A stretch of DNA of 37,205 bases from a virus (IMGVR_UViG_2721755652_000006); one strand, 5' to 3'. Positions 8,685 through 37,205 are shown, counted from the first letter of the stretch. Notes: generated by a model from the letters alone, not told the origin. Translations and numbers: made by a program.

Positions 8685-9147
8685 TCCTCAGCGTAAAGCC
8701 TTCCTCGATATGTTGGCGTGGTCAGAAGGAACGGATAACGGGCGACAACCGACACGTAACCACGGTTATGATGTTATTGTTGGCGGCGAACTGTTTACTG
8801 ATTACTCCGATCACCCTCGCAAACTTGTCACGCTACACCCCAAACTCAAATCAACAGCCGCCGGACGTTATCAGCTTCTTTCACGCTGGTGGGATGCTTA
8901 CCGTAAACAGCTTGGTTTGAAAGACTTCTCCCCCAAAAGCCAGGACGCAGTGGCATTGCAGCAGATTAAAGAGCGTGGTGCTTTACCTATGATTGATCGC
9001 GGTGATATCCGTCAGGCAATCGACCGTTGCAGTAATATCTGGGCTTCACTGCCGGGCGCTGGTTATGGTCAGTTCGAGCATAAGGCTGACAGCCTGATTG
9101 CAAAATTCAAAGAAGCTGGCGGAACGGTCAGAGAGAGTGAGGTATGA
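8671..9147 (+). CDS. R: Endolysin R (lambda-type lytic transglycosylase)
   Basis: 158-aa product matches lambda R over almost its whole length as recalled (…[20 protein letters not shown]…[22 protein letters not shown]…). Confidence 0.95.
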
Positions 9148-9605
9148 GCAGAATAACCGCGATTATCTCCGCTCTGCTCATCTGCATCATCGTCTGCCTG
9201 TCATGGGCTGTTAATCATTACCGTGATAACGCCATTACCTACAAAGCCCAGCGCGACAAAAATGCCAGAGAACTGAAGCTGGCGAACGTGGCAATTACTG
9301 ACATGCAGATGCGTCAGCGTGATGTTGCTGCGCTCGATGCAAAATACACGAAGGAGTTAGCTGATGCGAAAGCTGAAAATGATGCTCTGCATGATGATGT
9401 TGCCGCTGGTCGTCGTCGGTTGCACATCAAAGCAGTCTGTCAGTCAGTGCGTGAAGCCACCACCGCCTCCGGCGTGGATAATGCAGCCTCCCCCCGACTG
9501 GCAGACACCGCTGAACGGGATTATTTCACCCTCAGAGAGAGGCTGATCACTATGCAAAAACAACTGGAAGGAACCCAGAAGTATATTAATGAGCAGTGCA
9601 GATAG
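9144..9605 (+). CDS. Rz: Spanin inner-membrane subunit Rz
   Basis: 153-aa product matches lambda Rz as recalled ([39 protein letters not shown]…). Confidence 0.93.
9364..9546 (+). CDS. Rz1: Spanin outer-membrane lipoprotein subunit Rz1, embedded in Rz in the +1 frame
   Basis: 60-aa product [46 protein letters not shown]… with lipobox LVVVGC and a proline-rich region; lies entirely inside Rz. Confidence 0.9.
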
Positions 9606-9636
9606 AGCTGCCCATATCGATGGGCAGCTCATGCAA

Positions 9637-9930
9637 TTATTGTGAGCAATACACACGCGCTTCCAGCGGAGTATAAATGCCTAAAGTAATAAAACCGAGC
9701 AATCCATTTACGAATGTTTGCTGGGTTTCTGTTTTAACAACATTTTCTGCGCCGCCACAAATTTTAGCTGCATCGACAGTTTTCTTCTGCCCAATTCCAG
9801 AGACGAAGAAATGGTGGGTGATGGTTTCCTTTGGTGTTACTGCTGCCGGTTTGTTTTGAACAGTAAACGTCTGTTGGGCACATCCTGTAATAAGCAGGGC
9901 CAGCGCAGTAGCGAGTAGCATTTTTTTCAT
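9637..9930 (-). CDS. bor: Bor lipoprotein (serum-resistance lysogenic conversion protein)
   Basis: 97-aa product MKKMLLATALALLITGCAQQTFTVQNKPAAV… matches lambda Bor; lipobox LITGC. Confidence 0.93.
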   Translation of the reverse strand: MKKMLLATALALLITGCAQQTFTVQNKPAAVTPKETITHHFFVSGIGQKKTVDAAKICGGAENVVKTETQQTFVNGLLGFITLGIYTPLEARVYCSQ

Positions 9931-10221
9931 GGTGTTATTCCCGATGCTTTTTAAAGTTCGCAGAATCGTATGTGTAGAAAATTAAACAAACCCTAAACAA
10001 TGAGTTGAAATCTCATATTGTTAATATTTATTAATGTATGTCAGATGCGAAGGATCGTCACTGTATTCCCGGATTAACTATGTCCGCAGCCCTGACAGGG
10101 AAACTCCTCTGCGGGAGTGTCCGGGAATAATTAATAACGATGCACACAGGGTTTAGCGCGTACACGTATTGCATTATGCCAACGCCCCGGTGCTGACACG
10201 GAAGAAACCGGACGTGATGAT

Positions 10222-10632
10222 TTAGCGTGGAAAGATTTGTGTAGTGTTCTGAATGCTCTCAGTAAATAGTAATGAATTATCAAAGGCATAGTAATATCTT
10301 TTATGTTCGTGGATATTTGTAACCCATCGGAAAACTCCTGCTTTAGCAAGATTTTCCCTGTATTGCTGAAATGTGATTTCTCTTGATTTCAACCTATCAT
10401 AGGACGTTTCTATAAGATGCGTATTTCTTGAGAATTTAACATTCACAACCTTTTTAAGTCCTTTTATTAACACAGTGTTATCGTTTTCTAACACAATGTG
10501 AATATTATCTGTGGCTAGATAGTAAATATAATGTGAGACATTGTGACGTTTTAGTTCAGAATAAAACAATTCACAGTTTAAATCTTTTCGCACTTGATCG
10601 AATATTTCTTTAAAAATGGCAACCTGAGCCAT
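10222..10632 (-). CDS. ybcV: YbcV-like hypothetical protein (moron)
   Basis: 136-aa product from [32 protein letters not shown]…; the ORF track shows an in-frame 41-codon upstream extension to 10755; AT-rich. Confidence 0.7.
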
Positions 10633-10917
10633 TGGTAAAACCTTCCATGTGATACGAGGGCGCGTAGTTTGCATTATCGTTTTTATCGTTTCAATCTGGT
10701 CTGACCTCTTTGTGTTTTGTTGATGATTTATGTCAAATATTAGGAATGTTTTCAATTAATAGTATTGGTTGCGTAACAAAGTGCGGTCCTGCTGGCATTC
10801 TGGAGGGAAATACAACCGACAGATGTATGTAAGGCCAACGTGCTCAAATCTTCATACAGAAAGATTTGAAGTAATATTTTAACCGCTAGATGAAGAGCAA
10901 GCGCATGGAGCGACAAA

Positions 10918-11124
10918 ATGAATAAAGAACAATCTGCTGATGATCCCTCCGTGGATCTGATTCGTGTAAAAAATATGCTTAATAGCACCATTTCTATGAG
11001 TTACCCTGATGTTGTAATTGCATGTATAGAACATAAGGTGTCTCTGGAAGCATTCAGGGCAATTGAGGCAGCGTTGGTGAAGCACGATAATAATATGAAG
11101 GATTATTCCCTGGTGGTTGACTGA
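10918..11124 (+). CDS. ybcW: YbcW-like small hypothetical protein (68 aa)
   Basis: ATG-initiated 68-aa ORF, divergent from ybcV; AT-rich; function unknown. Confidence 0.6.
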
Positions 11125-11288
11125 TCACCATAACTGCTAATCATTCAAACTACTTAACCTGTGACAGAGCCAACACGCAGTCTGTCACTGTCAGGAAAGT
11201 GGTAAAACTGCAACTCAATTACTGCAATGCCCTCGTAATTAAGTGAATTTACAATATCGTCCTGTTCGGAGGGAAGAACGCGGGATGT

Positions 11289-11483
11289 TCATTCTTCATC
11301 ACTTTTAATTGATGTATATGCTCTCTTTTCTGACGTTAGCCTCCGACGGCAGGCTTCAATGACCCAGGCTGAGAAATTTCCGGACCCTTTTTGATCAAGA
11401 GCGATGTTAATTTGTTCAATCATTTGGTTAGGAAAGCGGATGTTGCGGGTTGTTGTTCTGCGGGTTCTGTTCTTCGTTGACAT
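11289..11483 (-). CDS. ylcI: YlcI-like small protein with a ribbon-helix-helix-like signature
   Basis: 64-aa ORF; the segment RNIRFPNQMIEQINIALDQKGSGNFSAWVIEACRRRL fits a beta-strand, helix, G-x-S turn, helix RHH pattern. Confidence 0.55.
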   Translation of the reverse strand: MSTKNRTRRTTTRNIRFPNQMIEQINIALDQKGSGNFSAWVIEACRRRLTSEKRAYTSIKSDEE

Positions 11484-11682
11484 GAGGTTGCCCCGTATTC
11501 AGTGTCGCTGATTTGTATTGTCTGAAGTTGTTTTTACGTTAAGTTGATGCGGATCAATTAATACGATACCTGCGTCATAATTGATTATTTGACGTGGTTT
11601 GATGGCGTAGATGCACGTTGTGACATGTAGATGATAATTATTATCATTTTGCGGGTCCTTTCCGGCGATCCGACAGGTTACG

Positions 11683-11694
11683 GGGCGGCGACCT
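11683..11694 (+). other. cosN cohesive-end sequence GGGCGGCGACCT (lambda-type cos); cosQ/cosB context spans roughly 11640-11870
   Basis: Exact 12-nt lambda cohesive end preceded by …CGACAGGTTACG and followed by the cosB-like region leading into nu1. Confidence 0.85.
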
Positions 11695-11871
11695 CGCGGT
11701 TTTTCACTATTTATGAAAATTTTCCGGTTTAAGGCGTTTCCGTTCTTCTTCGCCGTAACCTAATGTTTTTATTTAAAACACCCCCTGAAAAGAAAGGAAA
11801 CGACAGGTGCTGAAAACGGGCTTTTTGGCCTCTGTCGTTTCCTTTCTCTGTTTTTGTCCGTGGAATGAACA

Positions 11872-12391
11872 ATGGAAGTCAACAAAAAGCAGCTGGCTGA
11901 CATTTTCGGCGCGAGTATCCGTACCATTCAGAACTGGCAGGAGCAGGGAATGCCCGTTCTGCGGGGTGGTGGCAAGGGTAATGAGGTACTTTATGACTCT
12001 GCCGCCGCCATAAAATGGTATGCCGAAAGGGATGCTGAAATTGAGAACGAAAAGCTGCGCCGGGAAGTTGAAGAACTGAGGCAGGACAGCGAGACAGATC
12101 TCCAGCCAGGGACTATTGAGTACGAACGCCATCGACTTACGCGTGCGCAGGCCGACGCACAGGAACTGAAGAATGCCAGAGACTCAGCTGAAGTGGTGGA
12201 AACCGCATTCTGTACTTTCGTGCTGTCGCGGATCGCAGGTGAAATTGCCAGTATTCTCGACGGGATCCCCCTGTCGGTGCAGCGGCGTTTTCCGGAACTG
12301 GAAAACCGACATGTTGATTTCCTGAAACGGGATATCATCAAAGCCATGAACAAAGCAGCCGCGCTGGATGAACTGATACCGGGGTTGCTGA

Positions 12392-16098: not shown

Positions 16099-16118
<20 letters not shown>

Positions 16119-17417
16119 TCTCCCGCATATTGCCAGCATGGCTTTTAATGAGCCGCTGATGCTTGAACCCGCCTATGCGCGGGTTTTCTTTTGTGCGCTT
16201 GCAGGCCAGCTTGGGATCAGCCGCCTGACGGATGCAGTATCCGGCGACAGCCTGACTGCCGGAGAGGCACCCGCGGCGCTGGCGTTATCCGGTGATGATG
16301 ACGGACCACGACAGGCCCGGAGTTATCAGGTCATGAACGGCATCGCCGTGCTGCCGGTGTCCGGTACGCTGGTCAGCCGGACGCGGGCGCTGCAGCCGTA
16401 TTCGGGAATGACCGGTTACAACGGCATTATCGCCCGTCTGCAACAGGCTGCCAGCGATCCGATGGTGGACGGCATTCTGCTCGATATGGACACACCGGGC
16501 GGGATGGTGGCGGGAGCATTTGACTGTGCTGACATCATCGCCCGTGTGCGAGACATAAAACCGGTATGGGCGCTGGCCAACGACATGAACTGCAGTGCAG
16601 GTCAGCTGCTTGCCAGCGCCGCCTCCCGGCGTCTGGTCACGCAGACCGCCCGGACAGGCTCCATCGGCGTCATGATGGCTCACAGTAATTACGGTGCTGC
16701 CCTGGAGAAACAGGGCGTGGAAATCACGCTGATTTACAGCGGCAGCCATAAGGTGGATGGCAACCCCTACAGCCATCTACCGGGTGATGTCCGGGAAACA
16801 CTGCAGTCCCGGATGGATGCAACCCGCCGGATGTTTGCGCAGAAGGTGTCGGCATATACCGGCCTGTCCGTGCAGGCTGTGCTGGATACCGAGGCTGCAG
16901 TGTACAGCGGTCAGGAGGCCATTGATGCCGGACTGGCTGATGAACTTGTCAACAGCACCGATGCGATCACCGTTATGCGTGATGCACTGGATGCACGTAA
17001 ATCCCGTCTCTCAGGAGGGCGAATGACCAAAGAGACTCAATCAACAACTGTTTCAGCCACTGCTTCGCAGGCTGACGTTACTGGCGTGGTGCCAGCGACG
17101 GAGGGCGAAAACGCCAGCGCGGCGCAGCCGGACGTGAACGCGCAGATCACCGCTGCGGTTGCGGCAGAAAACAGCCGCATTATGGGGATCCTCAACTGTG
17201 AGGAGGCTCACGGACGCGAAGAACAGGCCCGCGTGCTGGCAGAAACCCCGGTATGACCGTGGAAACGGCCCGCCGCATTCTGGCCGCAGCACCACAGAGT
17301 GCACAGGCGCGCAGTGATACTGCGCTGGATCGTCTGATGCAGGGGGCACCGGCACCGCTGGCTGCAGGTAACCCGGCATCTGATGCCGTTAACGATTTGC
17401 TGAACACACCAGTGTAA
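16099..17417 (+). pseudogene. C: Prohead protease C with nested scaffold Nu3 region; reading frame broken about 54 codons before the end (N-terminal frame stops at 17254-17256, C-terminal 54 codons continue in another frame to 17415-17417)
   Basis: GTG start at 16099 overlaps the B 3' end by 20 nt as in lambda; 16099..17417 is 1319 nt, not a multiple of 3; frame switch localises to the CCCC run at 17246-17249. Confidence 0.6.
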
Positions 17418-17426
17418 GGGATGTTT

Positions 17427-19291: not shown

Positions 19292-19645
19292 GTGGCTGAT
19301 TTCGATAACCTGTTCGATGCTGCCATTGCCCGCGCCGATGAAACGATACGCGGGTACATGGGAACGTCAGCCACCATGACATCCGGTGAGCAGTCCGGCG
19401 CAGTAATACGTGGTGTTTTTGATGACCCTGAAAATATCAGCTATGCCGGACAGGGCGTGCGTGTTGAAGGCTCCAGCCCGTCCCTGTTTGTCCGGACTGA
19501 TGATGTGCGGCAACTGCGGCGTGGAGACACGCTGACCATCGGTGAGGAAAACTTCTGGATAGACCGGATTTCGACGGATGATGGCGGAAGCTGTCATCTC
19601 TGGCTTGGGCGGGGCGTACCGCCTGCCGTTAACCGTCGTCGCTGA
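19292..19645 (+). CDS. FII: Head completion protein FII
   Basis: 117-aa product (GTG start) MADFDNLFDAAIARADETIRGYMGTSATMTSGEQ… matches lambda FII. Confidence 0.92.
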   Translation: MADFDNLFDAAIARADETIRGYMGTSATMTSGEQSGAVIRGVFDDPENISYAGQGVRVEGSSPSLFVRTDDVRQLRRGDTLTIGEENFWIDRISTDDGGSCHLWLGRGVPPAVNRRR

Positions 19646-19656
19646 AGGGGGGATGT

Positions 19657-20235
19657 ATGGCCATAAAAGGTCTTGAGCAGGCCGTTGAAAACCTCAGTCG
19701 TATCAGCAAAACGGCGGTGCCTGGTGCGTCAGCAATGGCCATTAACCGCGTTGCTTCATCCGCGATATCGCAGTCGGCGTCACAGGTTGCCCGTGAGACA
19801 AGAGTACGCCGGAAACTGGTAAAGGAAAGGGCCAGGCTGAAAAGGGCCACGGTTAAAAATCCGCAGGCCAGAATCAAGGTTAACCGGGGGGATTTGCCCG
19901 TAATCAAGCTGGGTAACGCGCGGGTTGTCCTGTCCCGACGCAGGCGTCGTAAAAAGGGGCAGCGTTCATCCCTGAAAGGTGGCGGCAGCGTGCTTGTGGT
20001 GGGAAACCGTCGTATTCCCGGCGCGTTTATTCAGCAACTGAAAAATGGCCGGTGGCATGTCATGCAGCGTGTGGCCGGGAAAAACCGTTACCCCATTGAT
20101 GTGGTGAAAATCCCGATGGCGGTGCCGCTGACCACGGCGTTTAAACAGAATATTGAGCGGATACGGCGTGAACGTCTTCCGAAAGAGCTGGGCTATGCGC
20201 TGCAGCATCAACTGAGAATGGTAATAAAGCGATGA
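19657..20235 (+). CDS. Z: Tail completion protein Z
   Basis: 192-aa product MAIKGLEQAVENLSRISKTAVPG… matches lambda gpZ. Confidence 0.93.
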   Translation: MAIKGLEQAVENLSRISKTAVPGASAMAINRVASSAISQSASQVARETRVRRKLVKERARLKRATVKNPQARIKVNRGDLPVIKLGNARVVLSRRRRRKKGQRSSLKGGGSVLVVGNRRIPGAFIQQLKNGRWHVMQRVAGKNRYPIDVVKIPMAVPLTTAFKQNIERIRRERLPKELGYALQHQLRMVIKR

Positions 20236-20520
20236 AACATACTGAACTCCGTGCAGCCGTACTGGATGCACTGGAGAAGCATGACACCGGGGCGACGTTT
20301 TTTGATGGTCGCCCCGCTGTTTTTGATGAGGCGGATTTTCCGGCAGTTGCCGTTTATCTCACCGGCGCTGAATACACGGGCGAAGAGCTGGACAGCGATA
20401 CCTGGCAGGCGGAGCTGCATATCGAAGTTTTCCTGCCTGCTCAGGTGCCGGATTCAGAGCTGGATGCGTGGATGGAGTCCCGGATTTATCCGGTGATGAG
20501 CGATATCCCGGCACTATCAG

Positions 20521-22926
20521 ATCGGGTAGCAGTGATGCATTACTGCATCACCGCCCCCTAAGAACCGTACGTGCCAGTTTCCCGGCATACGGCTCAAGCC
20601 TTTCTAAGCCCACTCTCATGAGCCGGTTTCACTACATGTATACCTTTCGCATGAACAAGTGTGTGACACATCGGATGCAGCATAATCAAATTGGAGAGGC
20701 AGTTGCTCCCTCCATCGACTCGCCGTATGATGTGATGAACCTGCCACTGGGAATCAGATGTAATCCTCTCATCACATATGGGGCATCGGCCCCGCTGCTC
20801 AAACCAGATTTGAATGAGCTTTTTCCGTCCTTGCAGTTTGTGCCGCATTTTGTCTGCACAACGCTCCTCAAAGTACATCTCCCATTGAGGATCGAACGGA
20901 TTAGCTGCAATTTTAATCGGTTTAAACCGGTTGATAGGCGTATCGATTGCTTTCCTCAGATTTGCATACTGAGGCTTACCGTTGGCAAGGAGTTCTCCGG
21001 TAGCCGTGGAGAAAGACCAGTTTCGGGCACCTTGTTGATGGAAATATCTTTTCCGAATCCACTTCTTTCCCTTATTGGGATGACGCCGAACAGCCCAACG
21101 CCATAAAGCCAGCCAGATCTCATTGTCAACTTTGTTAAATGCGACCTTGGCCACAATGTGTTGATGGTAAGCCGCCCACCCTTTGATCATTGGGTTCAGC
21201 ATGCGGATCAACGTAAGCTGATCCATAGCTTTGTTGCCTTTGATTACAGCGCGTATTTTCTTTAAAAAGGAACTGACATTGGCTTTAGAGGGTTTGATCA
21301 GCATCTTACCGCCATATTTGCGAATGTTCTGTCCAAGAAAATCAAATCCTTCCTCGATATGTGTGATTTTCGTCTTTTCCGGAGAAAGCATTAATCCTCT
21401 TTCAGCCATAAACCGCCTGACGACGGGTAATACCTGAGACTCAAGAAGTTCTTTTGACTCTCCAGTGATAATAAAATCATCAGCATATCTCACATAGTTA
21501 ACTTTCGGGTTAACCAATCGTCCCTTGACTGTTCTCTTTTTAAACTCCGAAGCAAGAAGCGCCTCCAGTCCATCCAGAGCAATGTTAGCCAGTACAGGAG
21601 AAATTATTCCCCCCTGAGGAGTTCCTGAATTTACAGGGAATAACTGCCCCTTTTCCCTGTAACCCGCTTTAAGCCACTTTGTCAGGATTTGTCTGTCTGT
21701 TGAGGTGTTATCGATTAGCCATTGATGAGATATATTGTCAAAGCATCCCCGTATATCCCCCTCAAGCACCCATTCAGCGGATGTTTTCTGCGCAAGAACA
21801 CAGAAGCACTGTGCTATCGCATCTGCAGTAGACCTTCCAGTCCGAAAGCCGAAGGATCTCTGGTCAGCAGTGACTTCAGCAACGGGCTCAAGAGCCAGCA
21901 AATACAACGCCTGCATCGCCCGATCCTTCATAGTGGGTATCCCAAGGGGACGAGACTTCCCATTTGACTTAGGTATATAAACCCGCTTAAGTGGCTGTGG
22001 TTTGTAACCACGCCGTTTCAGCAGGTTAATAGCAAGAAATTTAACCTCCGGGGAAGACCATGTCTGACCATCAACCCCAGGAGTACGTTTCCCGCTATTC
22101 TCTGTAACTCGTCTGACAGCAACTGCTCTGCCACTAAACGAGTGAGTCAGTATCCATTGCAAGGATTTGACCTTGCCATGTTTACCTTCTCGTGTTGCCT
22201 TTACGATACGCGCTTGCAGTCTCCGCACTTCCCGATAGCACTGACGCCAGTTGATACTGTGCCAGGAGTCACCGTTAAGTAAGGACGCACCTTTACAGGT
22301 TGTAGCCTGCTCAGTCATCTGCTTTTCCTTTCTGGAAGATTACTCAAACTCTCTCGTAATGAAAGACCCAGTGGAAGTCTGCCCGCTTTCGCGTAGGGTA
22401 ATGTTGCCGGGCTCAACCCTTATCCGGTCCATTACAGACTGGCATTCGCTTTTTCCACCTTCTTTTACCCGCACCGCCAACAGTATCCCTTGCGGTTAAC
22501 CTGCCTCACGAGGCAGCGATACGGGCTTACCATGTTCCACCTGAATAACAACAGTAGGTTAGACTCTGCTCACAACACCGGTGGTTTATTGTCCGTGTAC
22601 CCCTAGCAAACAGAGGAGTAACCAACCACATACCTTTTGGTTCAAGCCTGTCAGCATCTTTGGCTTGTTCTGGTTAACGACGCTTCAGCAGTTCACATAT
22701 GTTAGTCATGCTACCGAGCCTAGACCTCCTCCGCCTGATGCTGGCAGATTACATGTAACCTCACGGTTTCATGCGATCCGAAGATCCGGTTTCATTGTCC
22801 TGACAGCTTCACACCCCACCGTTACCAGTGACGCATGTGTCAGTAGGCTACTGATGACGGAACATCAGGTTCCCTGACGGAATCGAACTCCGCTGGAACA
22901 ATTATTCAGGCGACTTCATGTCGCAC
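20521..22926 (-). mobile_element. Group II intron (about 2406 bp) with intron-encoded protein, oriented antisense to U
   Basis: On the minus strand the element begins 5'-GTGCGACATGAAG (plus 22926 downward) and ends …CTACCCGAT-3' (plus 20521); domain V-like GAGCCGTATGCCGGGAAACTGGCACGTACGGTTC at plus 20562-20595; the stop of the RT ORF overlaps the domain V start. Confidence 0.85.
20594..22318 (-). CDS. Group II intron-encoded protein: reverse transcriptase / maturase / HNH endonuclease
   Basis: 574 aa; RT motifs including YADD (VRYADDFIITG), a maturase X region, and a C-terminal Cys/His-rich HNH-like segment (CPICDERITSDSQWQVHHIIRRVDGGSNCLSNLIMLHPMCHTLVH). Confidence 0.88.
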   Translation of the reverse strand: MTEQATTCKGASLLNGDSWHSINWRQCYREVRRLQARIVKATREGKHGKVKSLQWILTHSFSGRAVAVRRVTENSGKRTPGVDGQTWSSPEVKFLAINLLKRRGYKPQPLKRVYIPKSNGKSRPLGIPTMKDRAMQALYLLALEPVAEVTADQRSFGFRTGRSTADAIAQCFCVLAQKTSAEWVLEGDIRGCFDNISHQWLIDNTSTDRQILTKWLKAGYREKGQLFPVNSGTPQGGIISPVLANIALDGLEALLASEFKKRTVKGRLVNPKVNYVRYADDFIITGESKELLESQVLPVVRRFMAERGLMLSPEKTKITHIEEGFDFLGQNIRKYGGKMLIKPSKANVSSFLKKIRAVIKGNKAMDQLTLIRMLNPMIKGWAAYHQHIVAKVAFNKVDNEIWLALWRWAVRRHPNKGKKWIRKRYFHQQGARNWSFSTATGELLANGKPQYANLRKAIDTPINRFKPIKIAANPFDPQWEMYFEERCADKMRHKLQGRKKLIQIWFEQRGRCPICDERITSDSQWQVHHIIRRVDGGSNCLSNLIMLHPMCHTLVHAKGIHVVKPAHESGLRKA

Positions 22927-23040
22927 ATTTGATCACCAGTATGGTGGCCAGTGGCTATGACTACCGGCGCGACGATGATGCGGGCCTGTGGAGTTCAGCC
23001 GATCTGACTTATGTCATTACCTATGAAATGTGAGGACGAT

Positions 23041-36624: not shown

Positions 36625-37205
36625 TGGCATTCAGAATGAGTGAACAACCACGGACCATAAAAATTTATAATCTGCTGACCGGAACTAATGAATTTATTGG
36701 TGAAGGTGACGCATATATTCCGCCTCATACAGGTCTGCCAGCAAACAGTACCTATATTGCACCGCCAGATATTCCGGCTGGCTTCGTGGCTGTTTTCAAC
36801 AGTGATGAGTCATCGTGGCATCTCGTTGAAGATCATCGGGGTAAAACGGTTTATGACGTGGCTTCCGGCGACGCGTTATTTATTTCTGAACTCGGCTCAT
36901 TACCGGAAAATGTTACCTGGTTATCGCCGGAAGGGGAGTTTCAGAAGTGGAACGGCACAGCCTGGGTGAAAGATGCAGAAGCAGAAAAACTGTTCCGGAT
37001 CCGGGAGGCGGAAGAAACAAAAAACAGCCTGATGCAGGTAGCCAGTGAGCATATTGCGCCACTTCAGGATGCTGTAGATCTGGAAATCGCAACGGAGGAA
37101 GAAGCCTCATTGCTGGAAGCCTGGAAAAAGTATCGGGTGTTGCTGAACCGTGTTGATACATCAACTGCACCTGATATTGAGTGGCCTGTAATACCTGAAG
37201 TTTAA
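36624..37205 (+). CDS. tfa: Tail fibre assembly protein Tfa
   Basis: 193-aa product [42 protein letters not shown]… matches lambda Tfa; start overlaps the stf stop (TAATG); stop at the window end. Confidence 0.92.

Follow-up and report, generated by a model that had tools for sequence, protein, structure and literature searches.

A second, chromosomal copy of the group II intron EcI5 was found in antisense orientation within the tail terminator gene U of an Sp8-type lambdoid prophage of Escherichia coli O157:H7, and it very probably got there by a single recent ectopic retrotransposition from the EcI5 of the co-resident plasmid pO157 into a sequence in U that mimics the EcI5 home site. The stretch of DNA analyzed here, called the window (IMGVR_UViG_2721755652_000006, 37,205 nucleotides (nt)), corresponds to the entire prophage, integrated beside icd and extending from the integrase gene through the tail-fibre assembly gene; over the first 25 kb, it matches NZ_CP017249.1, from a strain 86-24 derivative, without a difference. 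An earlier, sequence-only reading of the window had proposed that a 2406-bp group II intron on the opposite strand, encoding a 574-amino-acid (aa) reverse transcriptase (RT)/maturase/HNH protein, interrupts a lambda-like U gene.

The intron occupies window positions 20521-22926 on the minus strand (2406 nt), running from GTGCGAC at 22926 to CCCGAT at 20521, and its ends conform to the group II boundary consensus GUGYG/AY (GTGCG at 22926-22922 and AT at 20522-20521, both minus strand). When the whole window was scanned with Rfam at gathering thresholds, two group II intron matches were obtained, both on the minus strand and both spanning the full length of their models. RF02012 (group-II-D1D4-7; 133.4 bits, gathering 34, E = 2.8e-28) covered a part of domain I (22723-22869, intron nt 58-204), and the first 400 nt of the intron folded with a z-score of -2.8, indicating a structured domain I. 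RF00029 (Intron_gpII, domains V and VI; 20521-20597, 66.2 bits, gathering 40, E = 4.8e-11) terminated exactly at the proposed 3' splice site; its alignment placed the catalytic domain V hairpin, GAGCCGUAUGCCGG-GAAA-CUGGCACGUACGGUUC with an AGC triad and a GNRA loop, at 20562-20595(-), and domain VI, with its bulged A and the 3' splice site (...CUACCCGAU), at 20521-20559(-). The open reading frame (ORF) in domain IV (20594-22318(-)) encodes the 574-aa intron-encoded protein (IEP) ltrA (RefSeq WP_000138832.1), which carries RT-0/RT, X/maturase, D and HNH endonuclease regions: Pfam RVT_N, RVT_1 (E = 1.7e-45), GIIM and HNH were all detected above cut-offs, a YADD motif is present, and the nearest solved structure is 6ME0_C, the Th.e.I3 maturase/RT (E = 1.7e-200, residues 15-558). 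By every criterion that can be tested in sequence, the element therefore qualifies as a mobile group II intron. The sequence-only reading had given its boundaries, length, GTGCG start, AT end and domain V hairpin exactly to the base, the domain V/VI match that it anticipated on the minus strand was recovered together with RF02012, and the RT/maturase/HNH protein was borne out by the Pfam domains and YADD. We also observed that the UGA stop codon of the IEP (20594-20596(-)) overlaps the first bases of domain V (...UUGAGCCGU...), so that the ORF reaches right up to the catalytic hairpin.

Judged by its sequence, the element is EcI5 itself, an intron reportedly described by Zhuang et al. in 2009 (RNA 15:432), of which the window holds a second, chromosomal copy. 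All 2406 nt (100%) are shared with pO157 of O157:H7 Sakai (NC_002128.1, 35666-38071), and EcI5 was defined from its natural pO157 insertion (PMC8643678). The published numbering (PMC8643678) fits as well: exon-binding site 2 (EBS2) ends at nt 257, A258 lies immediately 3' to it, and EBS2a is a U located 2 nt upstream of EBS2. The intron and its ORF, whose class the sequence-only reading had left to a later comparison, could thus be assigned to subgroup IIB1 and the CL1 RT lineage. EcI5 is a highly mobile and well-studied intron that is used in targetrons (PMC8643678, PMC3898094); its activity ranks with the highest recorded for group II introns (PMC12584367), and its retrohoming efficiency was ~88% upon over-expression (PMC8643678).

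The insertion interrupts U precisely. Joining of 20232-20520 to 22927-23035 (both plus strand) gave a 131-aa protein identical to lambda gpU at 131/131 residues, and removal of the intron left a precise empty site with no target-site duplication. The 5' fragment (20232-20520(+)) comprises codons 1-96 and the first base of codon 97, after which the break falls; it matches Pfam Phage_tail_U (PF06141) at profile positions 1-103 of 130 (E = 1.3e-44), so that no full-length, uninterrupted gpU frame is present, and it is annotated by PGAP as 'gpU ... missing C-terminus'. The 3' fragment (22927-23035(+)), which holds the rest of codon 97 to the stop and is no longer translated as U, is annotated as 'gpU ... 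missing N-terminus'; RefSeq accordingly shows ltrA between two gpU pseudogene pieces. Since the intron lies antisense to U, it is not removable from U mRNA and U is truncated: the interrupted frame reads residues 1-97 followed by 12 unrelated residues (RVAVMHYCITAP) and ends after 109 aa at a stop codon at 20559-20561. Antisense insertion in a lambda-like U, unspliceable from its mRNA and truncating gpU, is what the sequence-only reading had foreseen. All genes from V to the right end of the prophage are on the plus strand, and a search of both strands between 20200 and 23900 gave no sigma-70-like promoter, which is weak negative evidence; the chromosomal intron copy may be transcriptionally silent.

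The empty site, ...TCAG/ATTTGATC..., is present in the Sakai prophage Sp8, in which U is intact. Over ~34.8 kb outside the intron, the flanks in the window differ from Sakai Sp8 by one single-nucleotide polymorphism (SNP; 19392) and one homopolymer indel (~17250), and the intron copies are identical to each other. The exact U-intron junction was detected in 10 out of 5,426 complete E. coli genomes, representing at least eight strains from different laboratories (three 86-24 records, F6294, ERL05-0623, ERL06-2497, ATCC 43888, and strains 105, 108 and 124), which rules out an assembly artefact. In all ten, the prophage is the same Sp8-type one, with ~100% identity over 25 kb, whereas in ~290 further genomes, including Sakai and EDL933, the same prophage is present with the site empty; the suggestion of the sequence-only reading that the site may be empty in related prophages thus held, and the assembly artefact that it had named as a possible refutation does not apply. 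Sakai and EDL933 carry EcI5 on pO157 (PMC3522654). Strain 108 has both the plasmid and the chromosomal copy. Intron-like matches were found on plasmids in 217 of 277 cases, the full-length chromosomal EcI5 copies among the matches listed were both in gpU, and no match to the intron was obtained among 50,697 phage records. An earlier survey from 2012 reported a single E.c.I5 copy in EDL933 and in Sakai, whose homing behaviour could not be defined (PMC3522654), and our literature search retrieved no earlier description of a chromosomal EcI5 copy. The most parsimonious account of this distribution is that U::EcI5 was founded once and inherited vertically in one O157:H7 sublineage. The junction is also a clean and stable marker for the 86-24 / ATCC 43888 / F6294 group.

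On pO157 and all six other plasmids examined, EcI5 sits in sense orientation 21 nt into a DUF1281-family gene (codon 7), downstream of sopAB. This DUF1281 site, ...CCAAACTGGTGCTCGAAT/CGTAT... (the slash marks the insertion point), is the EcI5 home site, and U is not. The window copy does not lie at this location, and being outside the home site it represents ectopic retrotransposition, not retrohoming in the strict sense. The 'recent retrohoming' considered by the sequence-only reading was therefore right as to recent mobility, as seen from the nearly identical flanks, but not as to the class of event.

The U site nevertheless closely resembles the home site. In the register fixed by the insertion point and read in the intron sense from -18 to +5, CCAAACTGGTGCTCGAAT/CGTAT of the home site aligns with CCATACTGGTGATCAAAT/CTGAT of U, and 18 out of 23 positions are identical (P(>=18/23) = 1.3e-7 at 0.25 per base). 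In the window, -1 to -18 of the target correspond to 22927-22944(-), in which C-18, C-17, A-14 (intron-binding site 2a, IBS2a), IBS2 and IBS1 are found, and +1 to +5 correspond to 20516-20520(-), with IBS3 (C+1) and T+5. The critical target bases of EcI5 are C-18, C-17, A-15, A-14 and T+5 (PMC8643678); the U site keeps four out of these five (C-18, C-17, A-14 and T+5) as well as the whole IBS2 and IBS3. It differs from the home site at -15 (A to T), -7, -4 (G to A), +2 and +3. This resemblance explains why the intron inserted where it did, and its orientation follows simply from the look-alike being on the strand antisense to U.

Pairing between the intron and the U site is also preserved. EBS2 (ACCAG, intron nt 253-257, 22670-22674(-)) is the only perfect complement in domain I to CTGGT at target -13 to -9, and EBS2a, which is U in the wild-type intron and pairs with A-14 (PMC8643678), finds its A-14 in U. 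For EBS1, whose sequence is not stated, nor is that of IBS1, in PMC3792343, PMC3898094 or PMC12584367, a complement scan, local folding and natural variants of the home site point to GUUUG at intron nt 316-320 (22607-22611(-)), which follows EBS2 at a distance of ~60 nt and is part of the 9-nt loop of an ID3-like hairpin. This putative EBS1 can pair with positions -5 to -1 of either target, CGAAT at the home site and CAAAT in U, and the A at -4 of U would turn a U.G wobble with it into a U-A pair. Two other candidates for EBS1 were rejected on position, namely GUUCGA at nt 39, which is close to the 5' end and precedes EBS2 by ~215 nt, and GUUUGA at nt 578, which follows EBS2 by ~320 nt. The G-to-A change at -4 also occurs in two occupied home sites, those of pJNE120442-1 and pRM14516. 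The pRM14516 site has in addition an A at -12, a mismatch in IBS2, and the pJNE120442-1 intron is shorter by 1 nt and its ltrA contains an internal stop codon; these two copies look like decaying ones.

Lambda U itself (NC_001416.1, ~8840) has the same site except for C at +5 (CTGAC), and thereby retains only three out of the five critical bases. The Leu codon concerned is CTG in lambda and, synonymously, CTA in the Sp8 allele, and it is CTA that supplies the critical T+5. The diverged U of Stx1a phages has no such EcI5-like site. If lambda DE3 keeps the lambda U sequence, DE3 lysogens used for EcI5 or targetron assays, e.g. HMS174(DE3), would carry this weaker off-target site.

From these data we propose the following course of events. 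The donor would have been the pO157 copy, transcribed and spliced in sense orientation within the DUF1281 gene, and its lariat RNA would have formed a ribonucleoprotein with the RT/maturase/HNH protein. In an ancestor of the 86-24 sublineage of O157:H7, this particle would have met the chance look-alike on the strand antisense to Sp8 U, where the RNA would have inserted itself by reverse splicing at the -1/+1 junction of the target; the opposite strand would then have been nicked by the HNH domain, a DNA copy would have been made by target-primed reverse transcription, and the insertion would have been passed on vertically. The plasmid-to-chromosome direction is suggested by the presence of a home-site copy in every plasmid examined, by the predominance of plasmids among the intron-like matches, and by the restriction of the U copy to ten genomes of one prophage type, while the identity of the intron copies and the near identity of the flanks to Sakai Sp8 argue that the event was recent. 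An endonuclease-dependent route into double-stranded DNA, rather than a replication-fork route, appears to have been taken, as the distal protein-recognized bases and T+5 are kept, HNH is intact and the intron would be in the leading-strand template. Several observations weigh against this proposal: A-15, the second most critical target base of EcI5 (PMC8643678), is T in the U site, and positions -7, +2 and +3 differ from the home site too, so that the U site must be regarded as sub-optimal; moreover, the EBS1 pairing depends on a provisional assignment.

The closeness of the two sites, together with the high retrohoming efficiency of over-expressed EcI5 (PMC8643678), might be taken to mean that EcI5 has a true second homing site in U, which it enters at high frequency, so that it would spread routinely into lambda-like U genes. 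We consider this quite unlikely, since ~290 genomes harbour the same prophage with an identical but empty site, among them the EcI5-carrying Sakai and EDL933 (PMC3522654), the intron is in 0 out of 50,697 phage records, the ten occupied genomes share one prophage background, and A-15 is replaced by T. That same mismatch would weigh less if the intron had instead entered by an endonuclease-independent route, i.e. reverse splicing into transiently single-stranded DNA at the replication fork with a nascent strand serving as primer, the pathway of RmInt1 and of Ll.LtrB when it retrotransposes in Lactococcus. It is documented that Ll.LtrB can move ectopically into single-stranded DNA and is then less strict about the distal target bases (PMC8643678). 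However, C-18, C-17 and T+5 are all retained in U, as is IBS2 in full, although single-stranded targets need none of these, and the HNH domain of the IEP is intact. In addition, Sakai Sp8 is located at 1.62 Mb with U on the plus strand, which, in the standard E. coli replichore layout, would place the intron in the leading-strand template and not in the preferred lagging one. Such a route is accordingly given slightly less credence still.

Recombination is frequent among O157 lambdoid prophages (PMC2669165), so the interrupted U could in principle have been imported from a phage or prophage already carrying the intron; alternatively, the junction itself could be spurious. Against both, the flanks are essentially those of Sakai Sp8 on both sides up to the junction, no phage record with the intron was found, and ten complete assemblies from different laboratories agree on the junction, leaving import or artefact with almost no probability. 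A single ectopic retrotransposition from pO157 into the home-site mimic of Sp8 U thus remains the account that we favour with high confidence.

What the insertion means for the prophage depends on its state. The window lacks cI, cro and N, and its O gene is missing the N-terminus, while Sp8 of Sakai showed no circularization, replication or packaging (PMC2669165). As the prophage is already defective, loss of U is probably neutral for the host, which fits its persistence; the tail completion that the sequence-only reading expected to be lost is indeed lost as far as this U gene is concerned, but with probably little consequence for the prophage. On the other hand, only three lambdoid prophages of Sakai, Sp8 among them, are reported to have a complete set of morphogenesis genes (PMC2669165), and the insertion takes away one potential supplier of tail terminator, so that complementation within the pool of defective prophages could be slightly reduced.

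Several further features of the window were noted. Its left arm (1-12000) resembles K-12 DLP12 gene for gene (emrE, ybcK, ybcN, ninE, ybcO, rusA, ylcG, Q, lysis genes, bor, ybcV, ybcW and nohD) and is joined to a lambda-identical structural module. A run of C at 17246-17250 has four C in the window and five in 86-24 (CP038408.1), ATCC 43888 and Sakai; the four-C run frameshifts the S49 peptidase (lambda C/Nu3-like) head protease/scaffold gene (~16099-17418), which PGAP calls 'frameshifted' in NZ_CP017249.1 only. The missing C probably reflects either a sequencing error in the homopolymer or a mutation that the 86-24 derivative acquired in the laboratory. Position 19392, in the FII-like head-tail joining gene, is A in the window and G in Sakai; the A is common to ATCC 43888 and 86-24, making this SNP a possible lineage marker accompanying the intron insertion. 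Finally, a full-length Rfam match to IS009 (RF02111, 229 bits) was obtained at 36967-37165(+), inside the tail-fibre assembly gene tfa, showing that this Rfam 'sRNA' (small RNA) family overlaps prophage tfa coding sequence; in Sakai Sp8, a weaker repeat (89% over 121 nt) is found further to the right.

The kind of element, its mechanism and the annotation of the locus are all already known, and no new kind of element or mechanism is described here. The new content is modest: a natural ectopic site of a model intron, linked to a synonymous polymorphism. For the rules by which EcI5, a gene-targeting vector, selects its targets, it adds one observation from nature, the wild intron having accepted a site with A at both -4 and -7 and T at -15, and it indicates that the pO157 intron was active recently within the O157:H7 population. 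Whether the case goes further we judge to be evenly balanced, namely that it is the first documented natural retrotransposition of EcI5, that it reflects mobility at native expression level in wild O157:H7, that T at -15 is tolerated in an otherwise good site, and that the choice of CTA or CTG, through T+5, decides the vulnerability of U. If so, EcI5 targetrons could be predicted to have a natural off-target in Sp8-type U genes, and insertion of an intron would be one route by which the O157 'defective prophage pool' loses morphogenetic genes.

Compared with known systems, the window copy shares with EcI5 of pO157 the nucleotide sequence, the 574-aa IEP (WP_000138832.1) and the positions of EBS2 and EBS2a, and differs in location and orientation alone, being chromosomal and antisense in Sp8 U, whereas the pO157 copy is sense in the plasmid DUF1281 gene. 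The target gene, once reconstructed, encodes a protein identical to the lambda tail terminator gpU (PDB 1Z1Z, 3FZ2 and 3FZB); lambda U is uninterrupted, while U of the window is broken after residue 97 and belongs to the CTA allele. The Th.e.I3 (T.el4h) ribonucleoprotein of Thermosynechococcus (PDB 6ME0/6MEC) is of the same IIB1/CL1 class and follows the same EBS2a-IBS2a logic (PMC8643678), but it comes from another organism and has another target, and can serve as a structural reference only. Another close parallel is ectopic retrotransposition by other group II introns, such as Ll.LtrB in E. coli and L. lactis, and by off-target targetrons (PMC3898094), which is likewise rare, is guided by EBS/IBS pairing and a few protein-recognized bases at partial matches to the home site, leaves precise junctions without target duplication, and is tolerated where the disrupted gene is dispensable. 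Unlike those laboratory cases, U::EcI5 arose naturally in wild O157:H7, at a site that matches the home site unusually well (18/23).

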